This document shows positions 1-12,455 of a stretch of DNA of 32,000 nucleotides, in pieces (position 1 is the first letter of the stretch; each line of letters starts with the position of its first letter). Source of the stretch: Microcystis aeruginosa NIES-843 (GTDB taxonomy: Bacteria; Cyanobacteriota; Cyanobacteriia; Cyanobacteriales; Microcystaceae); NCBI RefSeq assembly GCF_000010625.1, contig NC_010296.1:5340001-5372000 (forward strand), read 5' to 3'. The position numbers and the translations under genes were made by a program. Under the pieces are notes generated by a model that saw nothing but the letters and a program-made list of their open reading frames with translations, made no database searches and was not told the origin of the DNA.

Positions 1-332
1 GGATTTTACGACTGGAAAGCTTGTCTTGACAGCCTCTACTCTCTGAACTATGTTTTTATTCTCTCACTTTTTTTGCCGGTTGGGTTCTGATTTTAGATTT
101 CCTCAAGAATTACTGATTAAACAATTATTTAGTTGTCTTAAGTAAATTAAGTATTTTTGGTGATTTTTATGATATAATGAGCGATATTTTCGATTTTTAG
201 GTGGGTGTTTGCCAGTGTCATAGCAATCGGTCTCCTGATTAGGATAGAAAGTTGGAAATTAAGAGTTATTATCGCCTAACTGTGATGATGGGATTGCTTT
301 CGACATAGATAGTCATCTCTTTTTTTATTTAC

Positions 333-430
333 TTAACTTAGCAATGATTGAAACCGCTCATCTCCCCGAATCTGCTCAAAATCTTTATCTGTTTTCGCCA
401 TATCCTGATACTTGACATCAAGACTGATGA
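333..430 (-). pseudogene. 3' remnant of a paralogous TPR-repeat gene (last ~32 codons plus its own stop)
   Basis: 348-430 is about 95% identical at nucleotide level to 2000-2081, the 3' end of the 741-aa TPR gene. Minus-strand translation ISLDVKYQDMAKTDKDFEQIRGDERFQSLLS* parallels the C-terminus INLDVEYQDMAKTDKDFEQIRGDERFQSFLNRV*. Homology ends abruptly near 431 and no gene body follows. Confidence 0.6.
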
Positions 431-1978: not shown

Positions 1979-4204
1979 TTATACTCGATTTAGGAAACTC
2001 TGAAACCGCTCATCTCCCCGAATCTGCTCAAAATCTTTATCCGTTTTCGCCATATCCTGATATTCGACATCAAGATTGATGGCGCGTTGTAAGTTTTCGA
2101 TAGCTAATTCCACATTGTTTTGTAAGCCATAACAGCAAGCTTTATTGTAGTAAGCATTAGCAGAATTTGAATTAATTTTAATAGCTTGATCGTAGGATGC
2201 GATCGCTTCTTCCAATCTGCCTAAATCATCTAACGCATTCCCTCGGTTGTACCAAGCTTGATGGTAATCGGGTTTAAATTCTAAAGCTCGATCATATGAT
2301 GCGATCGCTTCTTCCAATCTGCCTAAATCATCTAACGCATTCCCTCGGTTGTACCAAGCATCAGGGTCATCGGGTTTAAATTCTAAAGCTCGATCGTAGG
2401 ATGCGATCGCTTGTTCAAATCTGCCTAAATTACCTAACGCAACCCCTCGGTTGTTCCAAGCATCAGGGTCATCGGGTTTAAATTCTAAAGCTCGATCGTA
2501 GGATGCGATCGCTTCTTCCAATCTGCCTAAATTATATAACGCAACCCCTCGGTTGTACCAAGCTTCATGCTTATCGGGTTTAATTTCTAAAGCTCGATCG
2601 TAGGATGCGATCGCTTCTTCAAATCTGCCTAAATTACCTAACGCAACCCCTCGGTTGTACCAAGCATCAGGGTCATCGGGTTTAAATTCTAAAGCTCGAT
2701 CGTAGGATGCGATCGCTTCTTCCAATCTGCCTAAATTACCTAACGCAACCCCTCGGTTGTACCAAGCTTCATGCTTATCGGGTTTAATTTCTAAAGCTCG
2801 ATCGTAGGATGCGATCGCTTCTTCAAATCTGCCTAAATTACCTAACGCAACCCCTCGGTTGTACCAAGCTTCATGCTTATCGGGTTTAATTTCTAAAGCT
2901 CGATCGTAGGATGCGATCGCTTCTTCAAATCTGCCTAAATTACCTAACGCAACCCCTCGGTTGTACCAAGCTTCATGCTTATCGGGTTTAATTTCTAAAG
3001 CTCGATCGTAGGATGCGATCGCTTCTTCAAATCTGCCTAAATTACCTAACGCAACCCCTCGGTTGTACCAAGCTTCATGCTTATCGGGTTTAATTTCTAA
3101 AGCTCGATCCCAGGATGCGATCGCTTCTTCTAATCTGCCTAAATTCTTTAACGCAATCCCTCGGTTGTACCAAGCTTCATGGTAATCGGGTTTAAATTCT
3201 AAAGCTTTGTCGTAAGAGGCGATCGCTTCTTCAAATCTGCCTAAATTACCTAACGCAATCCCTCGGTAGTTCCAAGCATCATGGTCATCGGGTTTAAATT
3301 CTAAAGCTCGATCCCAGGATGCGATCGCTTCTTCAAATCTGCCTAAATTAGCTAACGCAATCCCTCGGTAGTTCCAAGCATCATGGTCATCGGGTTTAAA
3401 TTCTAAAGCTCGATCCCAGGATGCGATCGCTTCTTCAAATCTGCCTAAATTAGCTAACGCAATCCCTCGGTAGTTCCAAGCATCATGGTCATCGGGTTTA
3501 AATTCTAAAGCTCGATCCCAGGATGCGATCGCTTCTTCTAATCTGCCTAAATTACCTAACGCAATCCCTCGGTTGTACCAAGCTTCATGGTAATCGGGTT
3601 TAAATTCTAAAGCTTTGTCGTAAGAGGCGATCGCTTGTTCAAATCTGCCTAAATTACCTAACGCAACCCCTCGGTTGTACCAAGCATCAGGGTCATCGGG
3701 TTTAAATTCTAAAGCTCGATCGTAGGATGCGATCGCTTGTTCAAATCTGCCTAAATTACCTAACGCAACCCCTCGGTTGTACCAAGCTTCATGGTAATCG
3801 GGTTTAATTTCTAAAGCTCGATCGTAGGATGCGATCGCTTGTTCAAATCTGCCTAAATTATATAACGCATTCCCTCGGTTGTTCCAAGCATCAGGGTCAT
3901 CGGGTTTAATTTCTAAAGCTCGATCGTAGGATGCGATCGCTTGTTCAAATCTGCCTAAATTACCTAACGCAACCCCTCGGTTGTACCAAGCTTCATGGTA
4001 ATCGGGTTTAATTTCTAAAGCTCGATCGTAGGATGCGATCGCTTCTTGGTATTGTTCGAGATAATCAAAAGTAGTACCTTGATAAAACCAACCGTCTTCC
4101 CATTGAGGTAGCAAACTAACTAGACGGTTGAACCCTTTTAAGGCATCTTGATAGCGCTTTAATTCATATAGTTTAAGAGTAAATCCTGCTAGAGAGGGCA
4201 ACAT
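1979..4204 (-). CDS. Tetratricopeptide-repeat protein, ~19-20 tandem 34-aa TPR units
   Basis: 741-aa ORF. Repeating unit is AWYNRGxALGNLGRxExAIASYDRALExKPDxxx with the canonical TPR W4/G8/A20/P32 spacing. ATG 4202-4204 directly abuts the TAA (4205-4207) of the upstream NTPase gene in the same frame. Confidence 0.9.
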   Translation of the reverse strand: MLPSLAGFTLKLYELKRYQDALKGFNRLVSLLPQWEDGWFYQGTTFDYLEQYQEAIASYDRALEIKPDYHEAWYNRGVALGNLGRFEQAIASYDRALEIKPDDPDAWNNRGNALYNLGRFEQAIASYDRALEIKPDYHEAWYNRGVALGNLGRFEQAIASYDRALEFKPDDPDAWYNRGVALGNLGRFEQAIASYDKALEFKPDYHEAWYNRGIALGNLGRLEEAIASWDRALEFKPDDHDAWNYRGIALANLGRFEEAIASWDRALEFKPDDHDAWNYRGIALANLGRFEEAIASWDRALEFKPDDHDAWNYRGIALGNLGRFEEAIASYDKALEFKPDYHEAWYNRGIALKNLGRLEEAIASWDRALEIKPDKHEAWYNRGVALGNLGRFEEAIASYDRALEIKPDKHEAWYNRGVALGNLGRFEEAIASYDRALEIKPDKHEAWYNRGVALGNLGRFEEAIASYDRALEIKPDKHEAWYNRGVALGNLGRLEEAIASYDRALEFKPDDPDAWYNRGVALGNLGRFEEAIASYDRALEIKPDKHEAWYNRGVALYNLGRLEEAIASYDRALEFKPDDPDAWNNRGVALGNLGRFEQAIASYDRALEFKPDDPDAWYNRGNALDDLGRLEEAIASYDRALEFKPDYHQAWYNRGNALDDLGRLEEAIASYDQAIKINSNSANAYYNKACCYGLQNNVELAIENLQRAINLDVEYQDMAKTDKDFEQIRGDERFQSFLNRV
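2185..4045 (-). repeat. 102-bp tandem repeat array (~18 units) inside the TPR gene
   Basis: Strict 102-bp period. GCGATCGC occurs at 2199, 2301, 2403 ... 4035 (19 copies, spacing exactly 102). Three consecutive units at 2761-3066 appear identical by eye, and two identical protein units map to 3278-3481. Confidence 0.95.
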
Positions 4205-5512
4205 TTACTCTGGTTTTTGTTTAAATAACTGCCAAATTAACTGTTTTAGAGGACGCAGATAGTCATTTAATTCTACCTGCTTTCCCTTGGCTTCAATTTG
4301 TCCGTCGCGAGGTTCTAAAATGTTTTCTCTGGCAATTAAATCAGCCAAACTTTGCTTGATTTTCCAGCGATACCAGAGTTGTTGCCACATATTTCCCTTG
4401 GCGATAAATCTGGCAGTGGGTTCAACAATAAACGGTTCTAAGGAAACATTACACTGGCGCAACAAATCCACCGCAGCATAGATATATTTCGCCAGAGTAT
4501 CCCTTTTAATTGCATCCTGATAACGTTTTTGCCAGTTGCCTCGCAGAGTAGCTTGATAGTTGGCAGGATTGAGGGGTAATTGTCGGTTGTCGAGGCGCAC
4601 TAAATTTTCTACCACATTGCGAAAGGTAGAATCATTACAGGCAGCAATGCTGCTGTAGTCAGTTTCGGCTTTAATGTTGGTTTGCGGGATAGTATCCTGC
4701 AATAATTCGACAATTGCACCGTCTTCCGGTGATGGCAATTCTACCAAGTGAAAACGGTTCCACAGTTTTGGGTATTTATTCCACTGTAACTTATCCCATT
4801 CACTCGGTTGTCCCGGTAATTCGGGTTCTTTTTCATCTCTCGCAGTGGCAATTACTCGCACTTCTTCGGGACGAGTACAATGGTTTTCATAAGCTTCTAG
4901 GGTTTTTAATAGTCGTTCTTGTAAGGGAATATTAATCGCCGCAAGAGGACTATCTTTTGCTTGGGGATTTTGTTCTACTTCCAAACTGCGGCGCATATAT
5001 GAGTTAAGATCGTCGAGGAAAAATAGTAATTTTCTATCTGTTCCAATTGCCTCTAATTGGTTATTTTCAGGTCGCTCTAACCATTCTCCTAATTTTAATA
5101 CTAATACCGTCCAGCCTTCATGATTCAAGCGTTGCGCTACTTCAGCAGCTTCTCTAGTTTTGCCGATTCCTGTGGGTCCGAGAATAATTAACCAGCGATT
5201 TTCCTCCAGATTTTGCAGAAGTTCGTTAGTAAAGTTTCGGTCAGCCATTCGGTGTTGGTAAATAATATTATGATCCGCTAAAGGAGATTTATCCTTTTCA
5301 TCCCTTTTGTAGATAATCGGGATTACATTGCTATTGGGGGCAATTTTCGTAAAGGGTAAGGACGGTTCAATGATTCGGACTTTTCGTTTTTGCTCTCGAT
5401 ACCACCAAATGAAACCGATTATTGCCAGAACAACAGTCACTAATGCACCGGAGAGGAGATTGTCAATCCAGTCTTTATTAGTTTGATAGAATTGTATTAT
5501 AGAATTCCACAT
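4205..5512 (-). CDS. Membrane-anchored P-loop NTPase, STAND/AAA-like
   Basis: 435 aa. One N-terminal TM helix (LLSGALVTVVLAIIGFIWWY, res 19-38). Walker A GPTGIGKT (res 112-119). Walker B LLFFLDD (res 162-168). VIATAR (res 220-225) follows in sensor-like position. The C-terminal half is helical. Confidence 0.85.
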   Translation of the reverse strand: MWNSIIQFYQTNKDWIDNLLSGALVTVVLAIIGFIWWYREQKRKVRIIEPSLPFTKIAPNSNVIPIIYKRDEKDKSPLADHNIIYQHRMADRNFTNELLQNLEENRWLIILGPTGIGKTREAAEVAQRLNHEGWTVLVLKLGEWLERPENNQLEAIGTDRKLLFFLDDLNSYMRRSLEVEQNPQAKDSPLAAINIPLQERLLKTLEAYENHCTRPEEVRVIATARDEKEPELPGQPSEWDKLQWNKYPKLWNRFHLVELPSPEDGAIVELLQDTIPQTNIKAETDYSSIAACNDSTFRNVVENLVRLDNRQLPLNPANYQATLRGNWQKRYQDAIKRDTLAKYIYAAVDLLRQCNVSLEPFIVEPTARFIAKGNMWQQLWYRWKIKQSLADLIARENILEPRDGQIEAKGKQVELNDYLRPLKQLIWQLFKQKPE

Positions 5513-5962
5513 AAGCCTATTTTAGATTTGAGATTTTCGATTTGAGATTGCGGAATGTGTGTCTAAAGATTTGTAGAAAATTAATTCGACTTCTTTTCAC
5601 CGGTGAGAATATTCTTCCTCCTCGCCATGATAAGGCAAATTTTAGCTGCTTGTAAGTCCCTATTACCAACATATTGCCACAGGCAAGAATCGATAACTAC
5701 AGGGTAAGCACATCTTAACAATCCTTGACAAAAGCTGCTGTCGGGTTGGGTTTCGTTCCTTGCTAACAGTATTGGTGTTACTGAATTAAGGTATGAATGC
5801 CAACTTTGCACCGCATCGAAAAGTTAGTTTGTATCTAGCTTTTAAAAATCCCACAAAAGAAGATTTATACCAAATCCGCTTTTAATATTACGACTAAGTA
5901 GCTGGTTATAATTAAATTAAAAATAGATTTTAGGTTCGATCCCCCCTGCCCCCCTTGATAAG

Positions 5963-7549
5963 CTATCCATTAGTCACATCTTTCTTAACATAAAATTTGA
6001 CAAAAAGAGAAAAGTGTGCCAGATGGCTCAAGGGGGTTCTATAGGGGGACTAATTTGATGAGATAGTTTCCAAGTCTGGCTGATATCATGTAACCTTCGC
6101 AGTCCCAACCAAATAGTTTTAACACCAGGTTCACCGTCACCTTTTCTACCTAAAAACCCCCCAAGAGAAGCAATCATTCTGACCGCTTCTCGAAAGGAGG
6201 GCGGCTTTTCAGGTGGCGGACTCTTTTTATGAATAGTGGCACACAAAGATTGCCATTCATGTTCTTCCAAAAAACTTTCACAACTCTCCTCTCCGTGTAA
6301 GCGTGCTTGATAGGTTAACCAAAGTAATCTCCAAGCTACAATTGAATAGGTAGCTAAGGCCATCTCAATTCTCCTACCCGTTTCTAATTGCAGTTTTTCT
6401 AATCCACAACCACTTTTTAAAACAAAATGATAGCGTTCTATTAACCAGCGATAACTATACCAGCGCACACAGGTTATCGCTGATTCAAAGCTACTAATGT
6501 CTAGGCTAGTTAAGAGCAGCCAACTGATAGGATTAACTCCGCTATGCGGATTTTCTTCTTCAGCTAAAATTACCTGTAATTTGACCGGTTGACGAGGGGT
6601 CGCCTTGGAGTGATGGCTAGGTACTTGTATTTCAAAACTGGCAAATCTAACTGTTAGTTTAGCTAGTCTAGCCTCGTGATTAGGATTGCGTTTTACTTGC
6701 ACATCTAAGGTCCCACAGGCTTTTATTTCTCTGATGGATTGATGTAAATATTTAGGCTCTGAATGCCCTGACCTTTGCTTGTCTTCGAGATAGTTAACTT
6801 TTCGGTTATGAGTTCCTCGAATTAATAAATGAGAGTTAGGACTTCTTGATTGGGCAAATAAATCAAATATGTCTGCCTCACAATCTCCGATTGTTACTAC
6901 TTGAATATCTTCGGGTATCTGTTGTTGTGTTTCTGACAAAGAATCTAACCATCTTTGACTTTCTTTTTCTTGGGTTTCTCTTTTTTTGCGTTGCTTGGCA
7001 ATCCCTAAATTCTTTTCTTCTCTTGCCCAGACATATTGATTAATCAGTCCTAAAGGTATTCCGACTGGGGACACTCCTAAGGTGGTATGAACTTTGAGAC
7101 CAAAGGATTTTTTATAATCTAGATAACCCATGCCTTTTTTGGCTTTTTGCGTCGTAAAGTCTAAACTTGTTGTGTCTTGCACTGCCAAAACTATTGGATG
7201 TTCTTTGATTCTTTCTACTGTACTTTTGGCCTGGGCGGCAATTATATCTGAGGGGTGAAAATAGGGGGAATTCCAAAAGTCGTAGGTGGCACTCGCTGCG
7301 GCTAGATTTCCTGAAGCTTGTGGCACACTTGTACTAGGTTGACTGGCCAAGTTTTCCACGATACTGATTAACCTTTTCTTTCTTCTGGTGTCCCCTAGGT
7401 CTGCATACTGTAATTCTTGGGCTGCCCATTTCTCCATTTTTTTGCTTACCTCCACCTTAATTCCTTCTTTCAAAACTATACCTATCAATCGTTTCCCCTT
7501 TTTTTAAGTTTCTTCTCTTTTTGTTAAGAAAGATCCGACTAATGGATAG
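5963..7549 (-). mobile_element. IS4-family insertion sequence (1587 bp)
   Basis: 28-bp terminal inverted repeats CTATCCATTAGTC(AC/GG)ATCTTTCTTAACA match at 26/28. A 9-bp direct target duplication CTTGATAAG lies at 5954-5962 and 7550-7558. It has a single DDE transposase ORF. Confidence 0.9.
6028..7437 (-). CDS. IS4-family (Tn5-like) DDE transposase
   Basis: N-terminus MEKWAAQELQYADLGDTRRKKRL resembles the Tn5 Tnp N-terminus. The YREK signature is YSYRWLIERYHFVLK (Y-x2-R-x3-E-x6-K). I prefer ATG 7437, with GGTGGAGG upstream, over the TTG at 7488 used by the track. Confidence 0.9.
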   Translation of the reverse strand: MEKWAAQELQYADLGDTRRKKRLISIVENLASQPSTSVPQASGNLAAASATYDFWNSPYFHPSDIIAAQAKSTVERIKEHPIVLAVQDTTSLDFTTQKAKKGMGYLDYKKSFGLKVHTTLGVSPVGIPLGLINQYVWAREEKNLGIAKQRKKRETQEKESQRWLDSLSETQQQIPEDIQVVTIGDCEADIFDLFAQSRSPNSHLLIRGTHNRKVNYLEDKQRSGHSEPKYLHQSIREIKACGTLDVQVKRNPNHEARLAKLTVRFASFEIQVPSHHSKATPRQPVKLQVILAEEENPHSGVNPISWLLLTSLDISSFESAITCVRWYSYRWLIERYHFVLKSGCGLEKLQLETGRRIEMALATYSIVAWRLLWLTYQARLHGEESCESFLEEHEWQSLCATIHKKSPPPEKPPSFREAVRMIASLGGFLGRKGDGEPGVKTIWLGLRRLHDISQTWKLSHQISPPIEPP

Positions 7550-7584
7550 CTTGATAAGGGGGGTGCCGATCCCCCCTTAGTCCC

Positions 7585-9002
7585 TAGGGCTGTTTCATTT
7601 AAATTAATTACAGCTGATTTTGAGTCAATAAATTTGAATGAAAATTCTCAAGTTTATCTTTTTCTAATCAAAAGAGTTAGTGACAATAACTAATCTTTAA
7701 TCCTCTGCCAATATTGATTATGAATAAATTGATAAAGCCTGTTTCCAAGCCACTAAAAGCCTATCTTTCTTGAAATTGTCTGAGAGTACATCCTGTTAAT
7801 TTAGCTAATTTTTCTGCTTCTTACGTCGATAAAACTATCAGTTTTTCCCAACGTTCAGCTAACCACCTCTGTCCCTCTGTTATTGAGAGAAAACCCAAAC
7901 CTCTGAAAAGATTCAATCCTATAGTTGTGAGAATTGACCAATTGCTGGCCGCTTGAAAATCACTTATCTCGCTTTTATCTTCCTCAAAAATTACATCTTT
8001 TACCCAATGTAACTGATTTTCTATTTTCCAATGTCCTCGAATAATTTTAGCAAATACTTGAGCGGATTCGGTTAGGCTACTGATATAGTAAGCTGTTTCT
8101 TCATAGGTTTTATCCCCGCGACTACCCTTTCTTTCTACTTTAATAACTCTTCGCAGATTTTCAAACCCTTGTCTTTCATTTTTTCTCACTTTAAAAACTT
8201 CTATTTTTCTTGATATTTTTCGTCCATGACTATTATCTTGTTCAAGAAAGCAACTTTCTGGCTTTGAGGAATTACTCAGGTCTTGTATTCGCTTATAAAG
8301 ATTTTTCTGATTTCCTTTAACGGTGATAACATAGTCATTTTTACTCTTGGCTATTAAGCTGATTGTTTTTTTCTGACAGTGTAAAGCATCGCCAGTAAAA
8401 ACTTTATTTTGGAGAGAGCAATCCTCAATTATAGCTTGCCCTTCGTCGATTTCAGACCCTTTTTTGTTTTCGATTCTTTTTAAGTGTAATACTAATCCAC
8501 TTTCTTGACTAAACAATGAGACAAACATGATAAAATTTTGTTGTTCATTATTAGGATTCTTTCGGGTGTTTTTGAGACTTTTTCCATCCATACCTAGCCA
8601 ATTTATATCATCTCTTTGTCCATATTCTTCTAATGCCCATTCATTAAACATTTTTAACAAACTCTGCCAGTCAACTCCCATCATTACCCTTCTAATTGTT
8701 GAATAGGATGGGACTCTTTCTGGAATTATGTTAAATTCTTTACTGAGCCTGTGCCGATTATTTTTAGCAAACTCTCCTAGTTCTCTATAACCTGAGTATC
8801 CTAGCATTGTTCCCAGTATTATTACTACTAATACTATCCATAAAGGGTGTCTTTTTCCTTTATCTTTCCGAAAGTCCTTGACTTGTTTCAGTTTTTCTAT
8901 TAAGCTCAACATATATTTAAAAGGTTGGCGGTCACTTATCATTTTACCTGATATTGATCGCTTTTACTTTTGATATTCTGATGGGAGAATGAAACAGCCC
9001 TA
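7585..9002 (-). mobile_element. ISAs1-family insertion sequence (1418 bp)
   Basis: Perfect 15-bp terminal inverted repeats TAGGGCTGTTTCATT. An 11-bp direct repeat CCCTTAGTCCC flanks it (7574-7584 and 9003-9013). It has a single transposase ORF. Confidence 0.9.
7821..8942 (-). CDS. ISAs1-family transposase (H-repeat-associated type)
   Basis: 373 aa. VKDFRKDKGKRHPLWIVLVVII, DGKSLKNT, GDALHCQKKT and GHWKIENQLHWVKDVIFEEDKS are hallmark ISAs1 blocks. The start could also be the internal Met at 8912. Confidence 0.9.
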   Translation of the reverse strand: MISDRQPFKYMLSLIEKLKQVKDFRKDKGKRHPLWIVLVVIILGTMLGYSGYRELGEFAKNNRHRLSKEFNIIPERVPSYSTIRRVMMGVDWQSLLKMFNEWALEEYGQRDDINWLGMDGKSLKNTRKNPNNEQQNFIMFVSLFSQESGLVLHLKRIENKKGSEIDEGQAIIEDCSLQNKVFTGDALHCQKKTISLIAKSKNDYVITVKGNQKNLYKRIQDLSNSSKPESCFLEQDNSHGRKISRKIEVFKVRKNERQGFENLRRVIKVERKGSRGDKTYEETAYYISSLTESAQVFAKIIRGHWKIENQLHWVKDVIFEEDKSEISDFQAASNWSILTTIGLNLFRGLGFLSITEGQRWLAERWEKLIVLST

Positions 9003-9132: not shown

Positions 9133-10128
9133 TTAAAATTGAATTACACTCATATCTAGGGATAAAAAGCGATCGAGTCCTAAATACATCCAATAAATAG
9201 AGTTTGGGGATTCCTGAATAGTTTTTTGAAATCCCAAGGCGGCGGCTAATTTCTCATAATCGGGATGAATAATCAAAGTATGTAAATCGCAGAGATGAGG
9301 AAAATCTAATGTCATTTTCTGGAGAGTTTTTTGGGCATCTTGCAGAAAAATTAAACGATATTTATCTAAATAATTAGTATCGATCATCCAACTGCGAATA
9401 AATACCGAAAGACAATTTTCATCTCCCACGGATGCCATTTTAAAAGGATCCTGTTCGTTGATCGCACTTAGATGTAAACTCTTGTTAGGAGAGGTAAAAA
9501 AATTCGCTTCCGACTCGTTTGCGGTGGGATAGAGGAGATAAAAACCGACGGGATTAAGATTATCTACCCGACGCAAAACTCGCATACCTGTGGTGTAATC
9601 TTTTGCCCAACCCCGCAACAGACGAGAAATGCGATGGGGAATTGCTTCAGCATTGCGATTCATCCAGTTATAATTGCGTGTCAGCAAGTTAGCCACAGGA
9701 ATCGCATCACAACGGGGATTAAATTGATCTAATTGCAATTCTACAGATGATTCTGAGCTATCAGGCTCTAAAATCCCCGTAATTGGCTTGATTTTAATTC
9801 TGGTTGTGTTGCCGTCAAAAATTTTTTCAATTAAACCAAGGGCTGCTAATTTATCTAACATCATACCGGCAGAGCGATCGCTGCCCTGATCCTGATCCTG
9901 ATAAAATAAATCCGATGCTTGCCGATGGGTACAGATAATGGCAGTGGTGGGAAAAATTAACTGGGATAAAGGGGGTTTTGCCTGTCCTTCCTTGGCGATC
10001 GCATAAATCCAGAGACGCAGAAAACAAGTGGCACGCACCCGGGTTAATCCCACTCTCCCCACCAAGCACTCGATCATTTGTTCTTGTTTTTCCCAAGAAA
10101 ACCAAATTTTCAGATGTTTAATCTCCAT
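9133..10128 (-). CDS. Hypothetical protein (331 aa), function unassigned
   Basis: Long ORF with AGGAGC 7 nt upstream of ATG 10128. The track start at 10152 is a TTG that contains that SD. The N-terminal third looks winged-helix-like (DRSAGMMLDKLAALGLIEK). No confident family call. Confidence 0.7.
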   Translation of the reverse strand: MEIKHLKIWFSWEKQEQMIECLVGRVGLTRVRATCFLRLWIYAIAKEGQAKPPLSQLIFPTTAIICTHRQASDLFYQDQDQGSDRSAGMMLDKLAALGLIEKIFDGNTTRIKIKPITGILEPDSSESSVELQLDQFNPRCDAIPVANLLTRNYNWMNRNAEAIPHRISRLLRGWAKDYTTGMRVLRRVDNLNPVGFYLLYPTANESEANFFTSPNKSLHLSAINEQDPFKMASVGDENCLSVFIRSWMIDTNYLDKYRLIFLQDAQKTLQKMTLDFPHLCDLHTLIIHPDYEKLAAALGFQKTIQESPNSIYWMYLGLDRFLSLDMSVIQF

Positions 10129-10166
10129 CTTTTTGCTCCTAGATTCTGACAACGATTATACTTTAT

Positions 10167-11372: not shown

Positions 11373-12455
11373 ATGACCACCACTCTACAACAGCGCGAGA
11401 GCGCTTCCCTGTGGGAGCAGTTCTGTCAGTGGATCACCAGCACCAACAACCGCTTATACATCGGTTGGTTCGGTGTCATCATGATCCCCACCCTGCTCAC
11501 CGCCACCACCTGCTTCATCATCGCCTTTATCGCCGCTCCTCCTGTAGATATCGACGGTATCCGCGAGCCTGTAGCCGGTTCTCTACTCTACGGAAACAAC
11601 ATCATCTCCGGTGCGGTTGTTCCCTCTTCCAACGCGATTGGACTCCACTTCTACCCCATCTGGGAAGCTGCTTCCTTAGATGAGTGGTTATACAACGGTG
11701 GTCCCTACCAGTTAGTCATTTTCCACTTCTTACTAGGTGTCTTCTGCTACCTCGGTCGTCAGTGGGAACTGTCTTTCCGTTTAGGAATGCGTCCTTGGAT
11801 CTGTGTTGCTTACTCCGCACCTGTATCCGCCGCTACTGCTGTATTCTTAATCTATCCCATCGGACAAGGTTCCTTCTCTGATGGTATGCCTTTAGGAATC
11901 TCTGGAACCTTTAACTTTATGTTCGTGTTCCAAGCAGAACATAACATCCTGATGCACCCCTTCCATATGTTAGGTGTTGCCGGTGTGTTCGGCGGTTCCT
12001 TGTTCAGTGCGATGCACGGTTCCCTAGTAACTTCTTCCTTAGTGCGTGAAACCACGGAAATCGAATCTCAGAACTACGGTTACAAATTCGGTCAAGAAGA
12101 AGAAACCTACAATATCGTTGCCGCTCACGGTTACTTCGGACGCTTAATCTTCCAATACGCTTCTTTCAACAATAGCCGCTCTCTGCACTTCTTCTTAGGT
12201 GCTTGGCCGGTAATCGGTATCTGGTTTACGGCAATGGGTGTTAGCACCATGGCGTTTAACCTCAACGGGTTCAACTTCAACCAGTCGATTCTCGATTCTC
12301 AAGGTCGTGTAATCGGTACTTGGGCCGATGTGCTGAACCGCGCTGGTATCGGTATGGAAGTAATGCACGAGCGCAATGCTCACAACTTCCCCTTAGACTT
12401 GGCTAGTGGTGAACAGGCTCCTGTAGCTCTGATTGCTCCTGCTATCAATGGTTAA
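11373..12455 (+). CDS. psbA: Photosystem II reaction-centre protein D1 (precursor with 16-aa C-terminal extension)
   Basis: 360 aa and unmistakable D1. Y161, D170, E189, H190, H198, H215, H272, H332, E333, H337 and D342-A344 (PLDLA) are all present. Residue 130 is Q. The C-ending codon bias is typical of a highly expressed gene. Confidence 0.98.

Follow-up and report, generated by a model that had tools for sequence, protein, structure and literature searches.

In the anti-jumbo-phage protein Avs5 (AVAST type 5; PaAvs5 and EfAvs5, PDB 9jap), a single polypeptide combines an N-terminal SIR2 module with a nucleoside triphosphatase (NTPase) of the Pfam family nSTAND3 (PF20720) and, as sensor, C-terminal alpha-helical repeats, which are either similar to tetratricopeptide repeats (TPRs) or Sel1-like (bioRxiv 10.1101/2025.07.08.663546). 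The nSTAND nomenclature comes from work on NTP-dependent conflict systems of multicellular bacteria (Kaur, Burroughs, Iyer and Aravind; eLife 2020, PMC7159879; eLife 2021, PMC8195603), which join STAND NTPases to superstructure-forming repeats, have a modular effector position and are enriched in cyanobacteria. NLR-like proteins such as the fungal HET-E/NWD proteins carry repeats of high internal conservation (HIC), defined by Psim ≥ 0.7; HIC repeats are reported to be tied to ATPases in bacteria as well, including nSTAND3, and the legend of its Fig. 8 names 'TMH' N-termini (PMC13449251). Here we describe a gene of this kind in Microcystis aeruginosa NIES-843. The window, that is, the whole stretch of 32,000 nucleotides which was analysed (NC_010296.1, positions 5,340,001 to 5,372,000), contains on its minus strand an open reading frame (ORF) for a membrane-anchored nSTAND3-type NTPase and directly behind it, in the same frame, a second ORF for a TPR array. 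We show that both ORFs derive from one gene, of which they form the two halves, and that this gene is undivided in other Microcystis strains and across cyanobacteria. Overall, we regard it as fairly probable that the locus is a split nSTAND3-TPR gene for an NLR-like membrane-anchored sensor and that the split allele has lost its function. The features that define the gene pair and its junction are the following (positions are those of the window).

4205..5512, minus strand: ORF 1, 435 amino acids (aa), with an N-terminal amphipathic helix and one transmembrane (TM) helix, an nSTAND3-type P-loop NTPase and a helical C-terminal module
4205..4207, minus strand: TAA stop at codon 436, which arose by G-to-T from the GAA (Glu) of intact alleles
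4202..4204, minus strand: ATG heading ORF 2; in the intact gene, this codon already exists as the internal Met437
1979..4204, minus strand: ORF 2, 741 aa, with one degenerate TPR, about 19 canonical 34-aa TPRs and a C-terminal cap; the sensor half of the intact protein

The two ORFs (5512..4205 and 4204..1979) meet in the sequence AAA CCA GAG TAA ATG TTG CCC, in which the TAA occupies positions 4207-4205 and the ATG positions 4204-4202; coordinates and triplets agree with an earlier note on this DNA, which had reported the TAA followed by an ATG in frame. The same note had stated that the TPR ATG has no Shine-Dalgarno sequence of its own, which is a fair claim, as only a GAG is found 3 nt ahead of it, and it had proposed a read-through protein of about 1177 aa, a plausible length which is not unusual because other members of the family reach 1000-1400 aa. 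A scan for promoters and terminators between positions 1700 and 6050 gave counts at or under the shuffled expectation and was uninformative.

To determine the origin of the split, the DNA of twelve Microcystis loci, which were found via exact-protein look-ups, was compared at the junction; a contig scan with back-translated patterns had returned one locus only, the patterns being too specific. Because the loci share the gene order SpoIID ... [gene] - small ORF - VapB/VapC - prismane/hydrogenase genes, we consider them true orthologues. The TAA is carried by the window, by Microcystis viridis NIES-102 (L002, AP019314.1) and by seven metagenome contigs (L002-L009 together with NIES-102), whereas five other strains or contigs (L001, L010, L011, L012 and L013) have GAA at codon 436, which answers the question of the earlier note whether the stop is a sense codon in related loci. 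In three of the latter (L011, L012, L013), the 21 bases on either side are identical or nearly identical to the window, and the intact proteins run ...LFKQKPE-E-MLPSLAGF... through the position of the stop (P0001, P0002, P0003, P0005, P0013, P0121). The split is thus a single G-to-T transversion, which turned GAA (Glu436) into TAA. Moreover, a Met follows codon 436 in all intact Microcystis alleles that were fetched, from which we conclude that the ATG is not an evolved start and that the TAA-ATG looks like a designed overlap merely because the next codon was already Met. Adjacent in-frame stop and start codons without a separate Shine-Dalgarno sequence are also typical of coupled gene pairs; in contrast to these, the arrangement here is the by-product of a nonsense mutation beside an existing Met, and the orthologues are single genes. 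Of the two origins considered in the earlier note, a recent nonsense split is therefore upheld by the GAA/TAA comparison and by the fused family, whereas translational coupling as the cause of the junction is not, since the Met codon pre-exists. Termination-reinitiation is possible as a consequence of the split, but not as the cause of its TAA-ATG appearance.

The fused form is the rule in the family. A search of 5.8 billion proteins yielded 217 relatives from Microcystis, other cyanobacteria and a few Chloroflexi, and nearly all of those that are not truncated at a contig end are single proteins with nSTAND3 and TPRs, 600-760 aa in length. Likewise, a HMMER scan of 1.84 billion cluster representatives gave 202 family representatives at E ≤ 1e-10, and fused single proteins prevail in the best 150 of these 202. 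ORF 1 represents the first 435 residues of the intact orthologue and is 95-100% identical to this N-terminal part of the fused Microcystis proteins. In the AlphaFold2 (AF2) model of the intact orthologue P0013 (735 aa; predicted local distance difference test, pLDDT, 88.9), a helix spanning residues 415-432 is followed by a one-residue break at 433 and a helix at 434-450; codon 436 is located at the start of the latter, just past the break that ends the last helix of the NTPase module. As judged from this model, the cut separates the NTPase module from the first TPR helix exactly where the two meet. A link of the family to the filament-forming TPR protein All4981, suggested by the source annotation 'similar to Q8YMK7' of Anabaena, was considered and dropped, as the TPRs of All4981 start near residues 150-250, this protein is described without an NTPase and the accession could not be tied to it. 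Independent lesions are also seen in two other cyanobacterial members: in one (L019, 4640-7129), an in-frame stop is reached about 38 codons into the first TPR, and behind it the TPR ORF goes on without a change of frame; the other (L018, 5001-7744) is truncated by an IS66 element. Together with the two insertion sequence (IS) elements upstream of the gene in the window, these lesions are consistent with a dispensable, possibly costly gene.

Eight independent assemblies, which come from different projects, share the TAA, so it is not a sequencing error, and the public collection contains the exact 435-aa product in 32 of its indexed blocks. The coding sequence of the NTPase is identical among the window, NIES-102 and a metagenome contig (L003), which argues for a young TAA allele. 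A second TAA haplotype (P0006) has the same stop, 7 amino-acid differences and another upstream context; because intact alleles carry the same polymorphisms, these differences reflect recombination rather than a long independent history. For the same reason, relaxed constraint as deduced from the ratio of non-synonymous to synonymous changes (dN/dS) of the TAA haplotypes (7 non-synonymous versus 0-1 synonymous) was dropped as an argument. Most likely, the split allele is a loss of function, that is, a young pseudogene segregating in the population.

The NTPase half contains the motifs listed below, all of which, along with the single TM helix, had been named in the earlier note and are present in the sequence of the 435-aa protein.

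5156..5179, minus strand: Walker A GPTGIGKT, aa 112-119 with K118, read from the sequence and conserved in the alignment
5009..5029, minus strand: Walker B LLFFLDD, aa 162-168, with a beta-strand at 162-166 in the AF2 model
4838..4855, minus strand: VIATAR, aa 220-225, a sensor-1-like strand of the form hhhTxR that is typical of STAND NTPases and ends in an Arg, within the strand 218-225 of the AF2 model

In an alignment of 88 family members, G115, G117, K118, T119, D167 and R225 are invariant and L163, F164, L169, V220, A222 and T223 nearly so; we infer that VIATAR is equivalent to sensor 1 of STAND proteins. Pfam nSTAND3 matches the protein with 32.2 bits (gathering score 27.2, E 1.1e-7) and is also precomputed for most homologues, while the nSTAND5 and generic AAA models of Pfam stay under threshold and NCBIfam contains nothing specific for the NTPase. 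This supports the STAND-like assignment proposed in the earlier note as well as its link to the Aravind group, from whose classification nSTAND3 stems. The AF2 model of the 435-aa protein (pLDDT 87.3, predicted TM-score 0.81) shows a P-loop alpha/beta core followed by helical modules (264-432), and in a Foldseek search against the PDB, the SIR2-STAND EfAvs5 (9jap_A) is retrieved at rank 37 (E 3.8e-6, TM 0.34). The predicted fold is consistent with STAND membership and is not a proof on its own. Neither phmmer of the single sequence against PDB sequences (nothing significant) nor a profile of the full-length proteins (swamped by TPR proteins) added to this, and Foldseek of the 735-aa orthologue model matched only TPR proteins; neither of the two Foldseek searches discriminates between STAND and other AAA+ proteins. 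Among intact alleles, the NTPase is under purifying selection (dN/dS 0.04-0.5).

Since the NTPase of Avs5 is of the nSTAND3 type, the closest experimentally studied relatives of the gene are defence proteins. The intact orthologues share with Avs5 the order of N-terminal module, nSTAND3 NTPase and C-terminal alpha-helical TPR-like repeats in one polypeptide, and EfAvs5 is among the structural matches of the 435-aa model. Unlike Avs5, the protein has one TM helix in place of SIR2 at its N-terminus, matches no PADLOC model and shows no similarity to solved STAND structures in phmmer; the family is cyanobacterial and chromosomal, and in the window allele the TPR array is a separate ORF behind a stop, while it belongs to a single polypeptide in the orthologues.

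At the N-terminus, one segment stands out.

5399..5458, minus strand: single predicted TM helix, aa 19-38 (LLSGALVTVVLAIIGFIWWY), with the basic stretch REQKRKVR behind it; the N-terminus is predicted to be outside and the NTPase cytoplasmic

Residues 19-37 have a mean Kyte-Doolittle hydropathy of 2.29 over 19 aa and form the sole such segment of the ORF 1 protein; AF2 renders it as a helix at 24-45 with low pLDDT. The hydrophobic segment is kept in the family (hydropathy ≥ 1.6 in 56 of 85 members), where Lys and Arg are more numerous in the 12 aa after it (4.2) than in the 15 aa before it (1.4). According to the positive-inside rule, the basic cluster after the segment predicts an anchor with the N-terminus outside and the C-terminus inside. 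As the family match begins at residue 1 or thereabouts in almost all of the 202 representatives, there is normally no N-terminal domain besides the TM segment, and Pfam detected no SIR2 domain in the ORF 1 protein. Three relatives (P0177, P0197, P0200), which are 37-39% identical over the whole NTPase module, carry a Schlafen/AlbA_2 domain (SLFN_AlbA_2) instead of the TM segment, which suggests that the latter occupies the effector position. By analogy, this is the kind of exchange at the effector position that is known from STAND immune proteins. The earlier note had recognized no effector but only a membrane anchor; this holds, with the addition that the anchor sits where those relatives have Schlafen/AlbA_2.

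The exchange of TM for Schlafen/AlbA_2 corresponds to the modular effector position of the NTP-dependent conflict systems, with which the family also shares the STAND NTPase linked to superstructure-forming repeats and the enrichment in cyanobacteria. In contrast to those systems, a single gene is found here, without vWA-MoxR, EACC or EAD/Death-like adaptor partners. Indeed, no conserved neighbour that could supply an effector was found beside the distant homologues in Nostoc and other genomes, which points to a one-gene system. One further Microcystis allele (P0121; L020, 619-3909) is 99% identical in the NTPase and has an intact Glu436 and one or two TPRs followed by a C-terminal CHAT (caspase-like) protease domain (Pfam E 8e-42). 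It may represent a real TPR-mediated gene fusion or an assembly chimera. Its only source is one metagenome contig of 4 kb built from short reads, which might have been joined wrongly across the TPR repeats, and it was therefore left unused as evidence for an effector.

The second half of the gene is dominated by repeats.

2174..4047, minus strand: tandem array; Tandem Repeats Finder reports a 102-bp unit in 18.4 copies with 93% matching, including runs of identical units
1991..2155, minus strand: TPR end-of-group cap, aa 684-738 of ORF 2; matched by NCBIfam NF047558 TPR_END_plus with 273.9 bits (cut-off 32)

With Pfam TPR_1, 20 repeats are recognised in ORF 2 (E 1e-228); apart from the end cap, which is also kept at the C-terminus of intact orthologues, the TPR matches in NCBIfam are generic. 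For the comparison of the repeats, the units were set in the canonical TPR register (W4, G8, A20, Y24, A27, P32), with Pfam aligning residues 104-137 to profile positions 1-34. Among the 17 core units, 21 of the 34 positions are invariant in amino acid, the 13 variable ones being 1, 2, 5, 6, 9, 12, 13, 17, 19, 24, 26, 30 and 34; synonymous variants occur alone at three further positions and additionally at two of the 13 variable ones. Most of the codon variation in the array alters the amino acid, and several adjacent units are identical at the nucleotide level. The hypervariable positions of the concave face of TPRs are 2, 5, 9, 12, 13, 33 and 34, and the ligand contacts of HOP lie at positions 2, 5, 6, 9, 12 and 13 (Magliery and Regan, PMC1261162). 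Seven of the eight concave-face positions vary in the array (hypergeometric p = 0.002). With a Psim of 0.85 for 19 units, or of 0.884 when the 17 core units are taken, the array lies above the HIC threshold of 0.7. The number of repeats is also polymorphic, with TPR parts of 195, 299 or 365 aa in intact alleles compared to 741 aa in the window. Near-identical repeats, variation of contact residues and length polymorphism together resemble the signature described for the sensors of fungal NLRs. The likeness to the HIC-repeat NLR-like proteins of PMC13449251 includes the combination of an ATPase with near-identical repeats (Psim 0.85-0.88 here), variation at few surface positions, repeat numbers that differ by strain, segregating pseudogenised alleles and nearby transposable elements; the difference is that TPRs are attached to nSTAND3 here, while WD40, ANK or TPR repeats are attached to NACHT or NB-ARC there.

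In NIES-102 (L002, 9309-11540), the array is within 7 bases of the length of that in the window, although 131 positions differ, and relative to the window it contains about 10 single-base indels, which recur at ...CCCGAT[G/A]A... of the repeat unit. These are probably systematic errors of long-read sequencing, perhaps at a methylation motif, and not true frameshifts; because they recur at the same position of the repeat, the frameshifts were dropped as a sign of decay.

How the intact protein might work can be proposed by analogy with STAND proteins in general (PMC7159879, PMC13581612); both a role in defence and a membrane-effector mechanism are suggested by this analogy. The intact protein would be a membrane-anchored, NLR-like intracellular sensor with its N-terminus outside and its NTPase and TPRs in the cytoplasm. 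At rest, the TPR array would keep the ADP-bound NTPase off. A protein ligand, most plausibly from a phage or another invader, would bind the concave TPR surface and cause nucleotide exchange and NTPase-driven oligomerisation, which would bring the TM and amphipathic helices of the N-termini together; the clustered helices would then disturb the membrane or make it permeable and arrest the growth of the infected cell. In plant CC-NLR resistosomes of the ZAR1 type, oligomerisation exposes N-terminal helices that enter the membrane. The resemblance would be a functional analogy only, in that a STAND/NOD oligomer gathers N-terminal helices at the membrane as executioner; unlike in ZAR1, the helix here is predicted to be constitutively embedded, the N-terminal region is not homologous and the mechanism is entirely hypothetical. 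The split allele would still yield the anchored NTPase, though without a covalently attached sensor, and the TPR protein, if made at all, would be expected at a reduced level via reinitiation at the ATG.

Several observations weigh against this interpretation and have to be considered. With respect to the loss of function, both ORFs are fully open and the adjacency of TAA and ATG could allow reinitiation, and the split allele is widespread, as seen from the 32 collection blocks and the second haplotype. With respect to defence, a PADLOC scan of both proteins detected no system and only weak P-loop and TPR matches, the best being PDC-S73 (E 4.6e-5, 20 bits) and IetA P-loop fragments, with no Avs model among them, so that the PADLOC check proposed in the earlier note ended without a match; no homologue was found in phage or plasmid collections; the gene is not located in a recognisable defence island apart from toxin-antitoxin (TA) modules; and the homologues in Nostoc and other genomes are placed among housekeeping genes. 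The nSTAND3 match covers only profile positions 7-74 of 155, i.e. the first half, and the top Foldseek matches of the 435-aa model in the PDB are generic AAA+ proteins (RFC, Clp), not STANDs. Finally, the single TM helix may be a mere anchor and not an effector. Some of these points would also fit a family of housekeeping membrane-anchored ATPase/TPR scaffolds, e.g. for the assembly or organisation of envelope or thylakoid complexes, in which case the split would simply remove a paralogue that is not essential. In cyanobacteria, TPR proteins commonly serve as assembly factors. Besides the genomic neighbourhood in Nostoc and other genomes and the empty PADLOC, phage and plasmid searches, the fixed chromosomal position in Microcystis and the purifying selection on the NTPase of intact alleles speak for this possibility, and defence and non-defence STAND clades are interspersed (PMC13581612). 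We nevertheless consider it doubtful, given the HIC repeats with variation at ligand-contact positions and polymorphic repeat number, the recurrent inactivation in the family, the exchange of the N-terminal position for Schlafen/AlbA_2 in relatives and the NTPase type in common with Avs5.

The open TPR frame and the frequency of the allele could also mean that the split gene still functions with two chains, reinitiation at TAA-ATG yielding the anchored NTPase and a free 20-repeat TPR sensor, which would assemble non-covalently and might be re-tuned. The adjacent stop and start between two intact ORFs, the cut precisely at the domain boundary, the abundance of the allele in environmental assemblies on two NTPase haplotypes and the in-frame stop near the NTPase/TPR border of L019, behind which the TPR ORF is likewise open, are in line with this. 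However, the ATG is an inherited internal codon without a usable Shine-Dalgarno sequence, the two-gene arrangement is conserved nowhere in the family, the differences of the TAA haplotypes are shared with intact alleles and thus point to recombination instead of long maintenance, and the stop of L019 is located at another site, where it would break the first TPR. The open TPR ORF is uninformative, because units of 102 bp keep the frame, which persists in such a repeat even without selection. A working two-chain form is therefore unlikely in our view, and we give still less credence to its extension to a natural two-chain NLR-like sensor, in which the expanded TPR receptor would gate a membrane-disrupting N-terminal helix and populations would carry one- and two-chain forms. 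An error of sequencing or assembly, in turn, might be suspected for the stop codon or the 20-repeat array, as tandem repeats of 102 bp are hard to assemble and the about ten indels of the NIES-102 array, with their recurrent place in the repeat unit, resemble systematic read errors. For the stop codon, an assembly artefact is excluded by the 8 independent assemblies; regarding the array, a metagenome contig with the same TAA carries at least 440 aa of open TPR ORF, and the arrays of NIES-102 and the window are nearly equal in length in spite of their 131 differing positions, so that an artefact has only a negligible probability altogether. The split nSTAND3-TPR gene, with an NLR-like sensor as its intact product and a probable loss of function in the window allele, remains the explanation which we prefer.

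Downstream, the gene is followed by VapC (PIN), a Phd/YefM-like antitoxin and a small HicB-like ORF, and two IS elements are located upstream of it.

5949..7563, minus strand: IS4/Tn5-type IS with terminal inverted repeats of 46 nt (5949-5994 / 7518-7563), located in the intergenic region 437 bp ahead of the NTPase start codon
about 7585..9002, minus strand: ISAs1-type IS adjoining the first IS, with the Pfam domains DDE_Tnp_1_assoc and DDE_Tnp_1

The transposase of the Tn5-type element contains the Pfam domains Tnp_DNA_bind, DDE_Tnp_1 and Dimer_Tnp_Tn5; the neighbourhood agrees with the TA modules on one side and the two IS on the other that the earlier note had described. The Tn5-type element is missing at this site in PCC 9809, M061S2 and FACHB-524, and the ISAs1-type element is missing from the otherwise collinear NIES-102 locus, so that the window and NIES-102 represent close but different strains.

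Beyond the HicB-like/VapBC cassette, a 100-nt copy (330-429, minus strand) of the 3' end of the TPR gene (1982-2081) was observed, which is 88% identical and encodes ...LDVKYQDMAKTDKDFEQIRGDERFQSLLS*, the alternative C-terminus found in the alleles P0001 and P0002 (631 aa); the part of the window with this copy also aligns to PCC 9809 (L011). One possibility is that the TA cassette (about 430-1980) entered the 3' end of the gene with a duplication, another that allelic ends were exchanged. The VapBC module is flanked by 154-nt repeats (500-653 and 1554-1707), which are 87% identical, contain inverted arms (575-647 / 1629-1701) and look like small mobile repeats of the MITE (miniature inverted-repeat transposable element) type; spurious short ORFs with near-identical translations are called across them. 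On the other side of the gene, an ORF of 339 aa (9133-10152, minus strand) without a Pfam or NCBIfam match lies upstream in the same orientation in most of the Microcystis loci examined, where it is called with 331 aa, though not in FACHB-524, and is not conserved beside the distant homologues. Further away, a strain-variable segment contains a psbA copy (Photo_RC, 360 aa; 11373-12455, plus strand) between a PemK/MazF toxin gene and a YiaAB gene; this copy is present in NIES-102 and missing at this position in PCC 9809, M061S2 and FACHB-524.

Taken together, the architecture of a TM helix, nSTAND3, HIC TPRs and an end cap, as well as the evolutionary behaviour of the family, fit kinds that have already been described. 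For the annotation of NIES-843, this means that the ORFs are better treated as a single disrupted gene than as an operon. The family itself is a compact group of about 200 sequence clusters of almost entirely cyanobacterial single-gene STAND sensors, in which the TM helix is the sole N-terminal module and the TPR arrays show the same kind of evolution as the hypervariable repeat sensors of fungal NLRs. Should the intact protein be a phage sensor that kills via its own membrane helix, it would represent a minimal bacterial counterpart of resistosome-type NLR execution and, for bloom-forming Microcystis, a candidate determinant of strain-specific resistance to cyanophages, and the TAA/GAA polymorphism supplies natural off and on alleles with which this phage-sensor interpretation can be tested.

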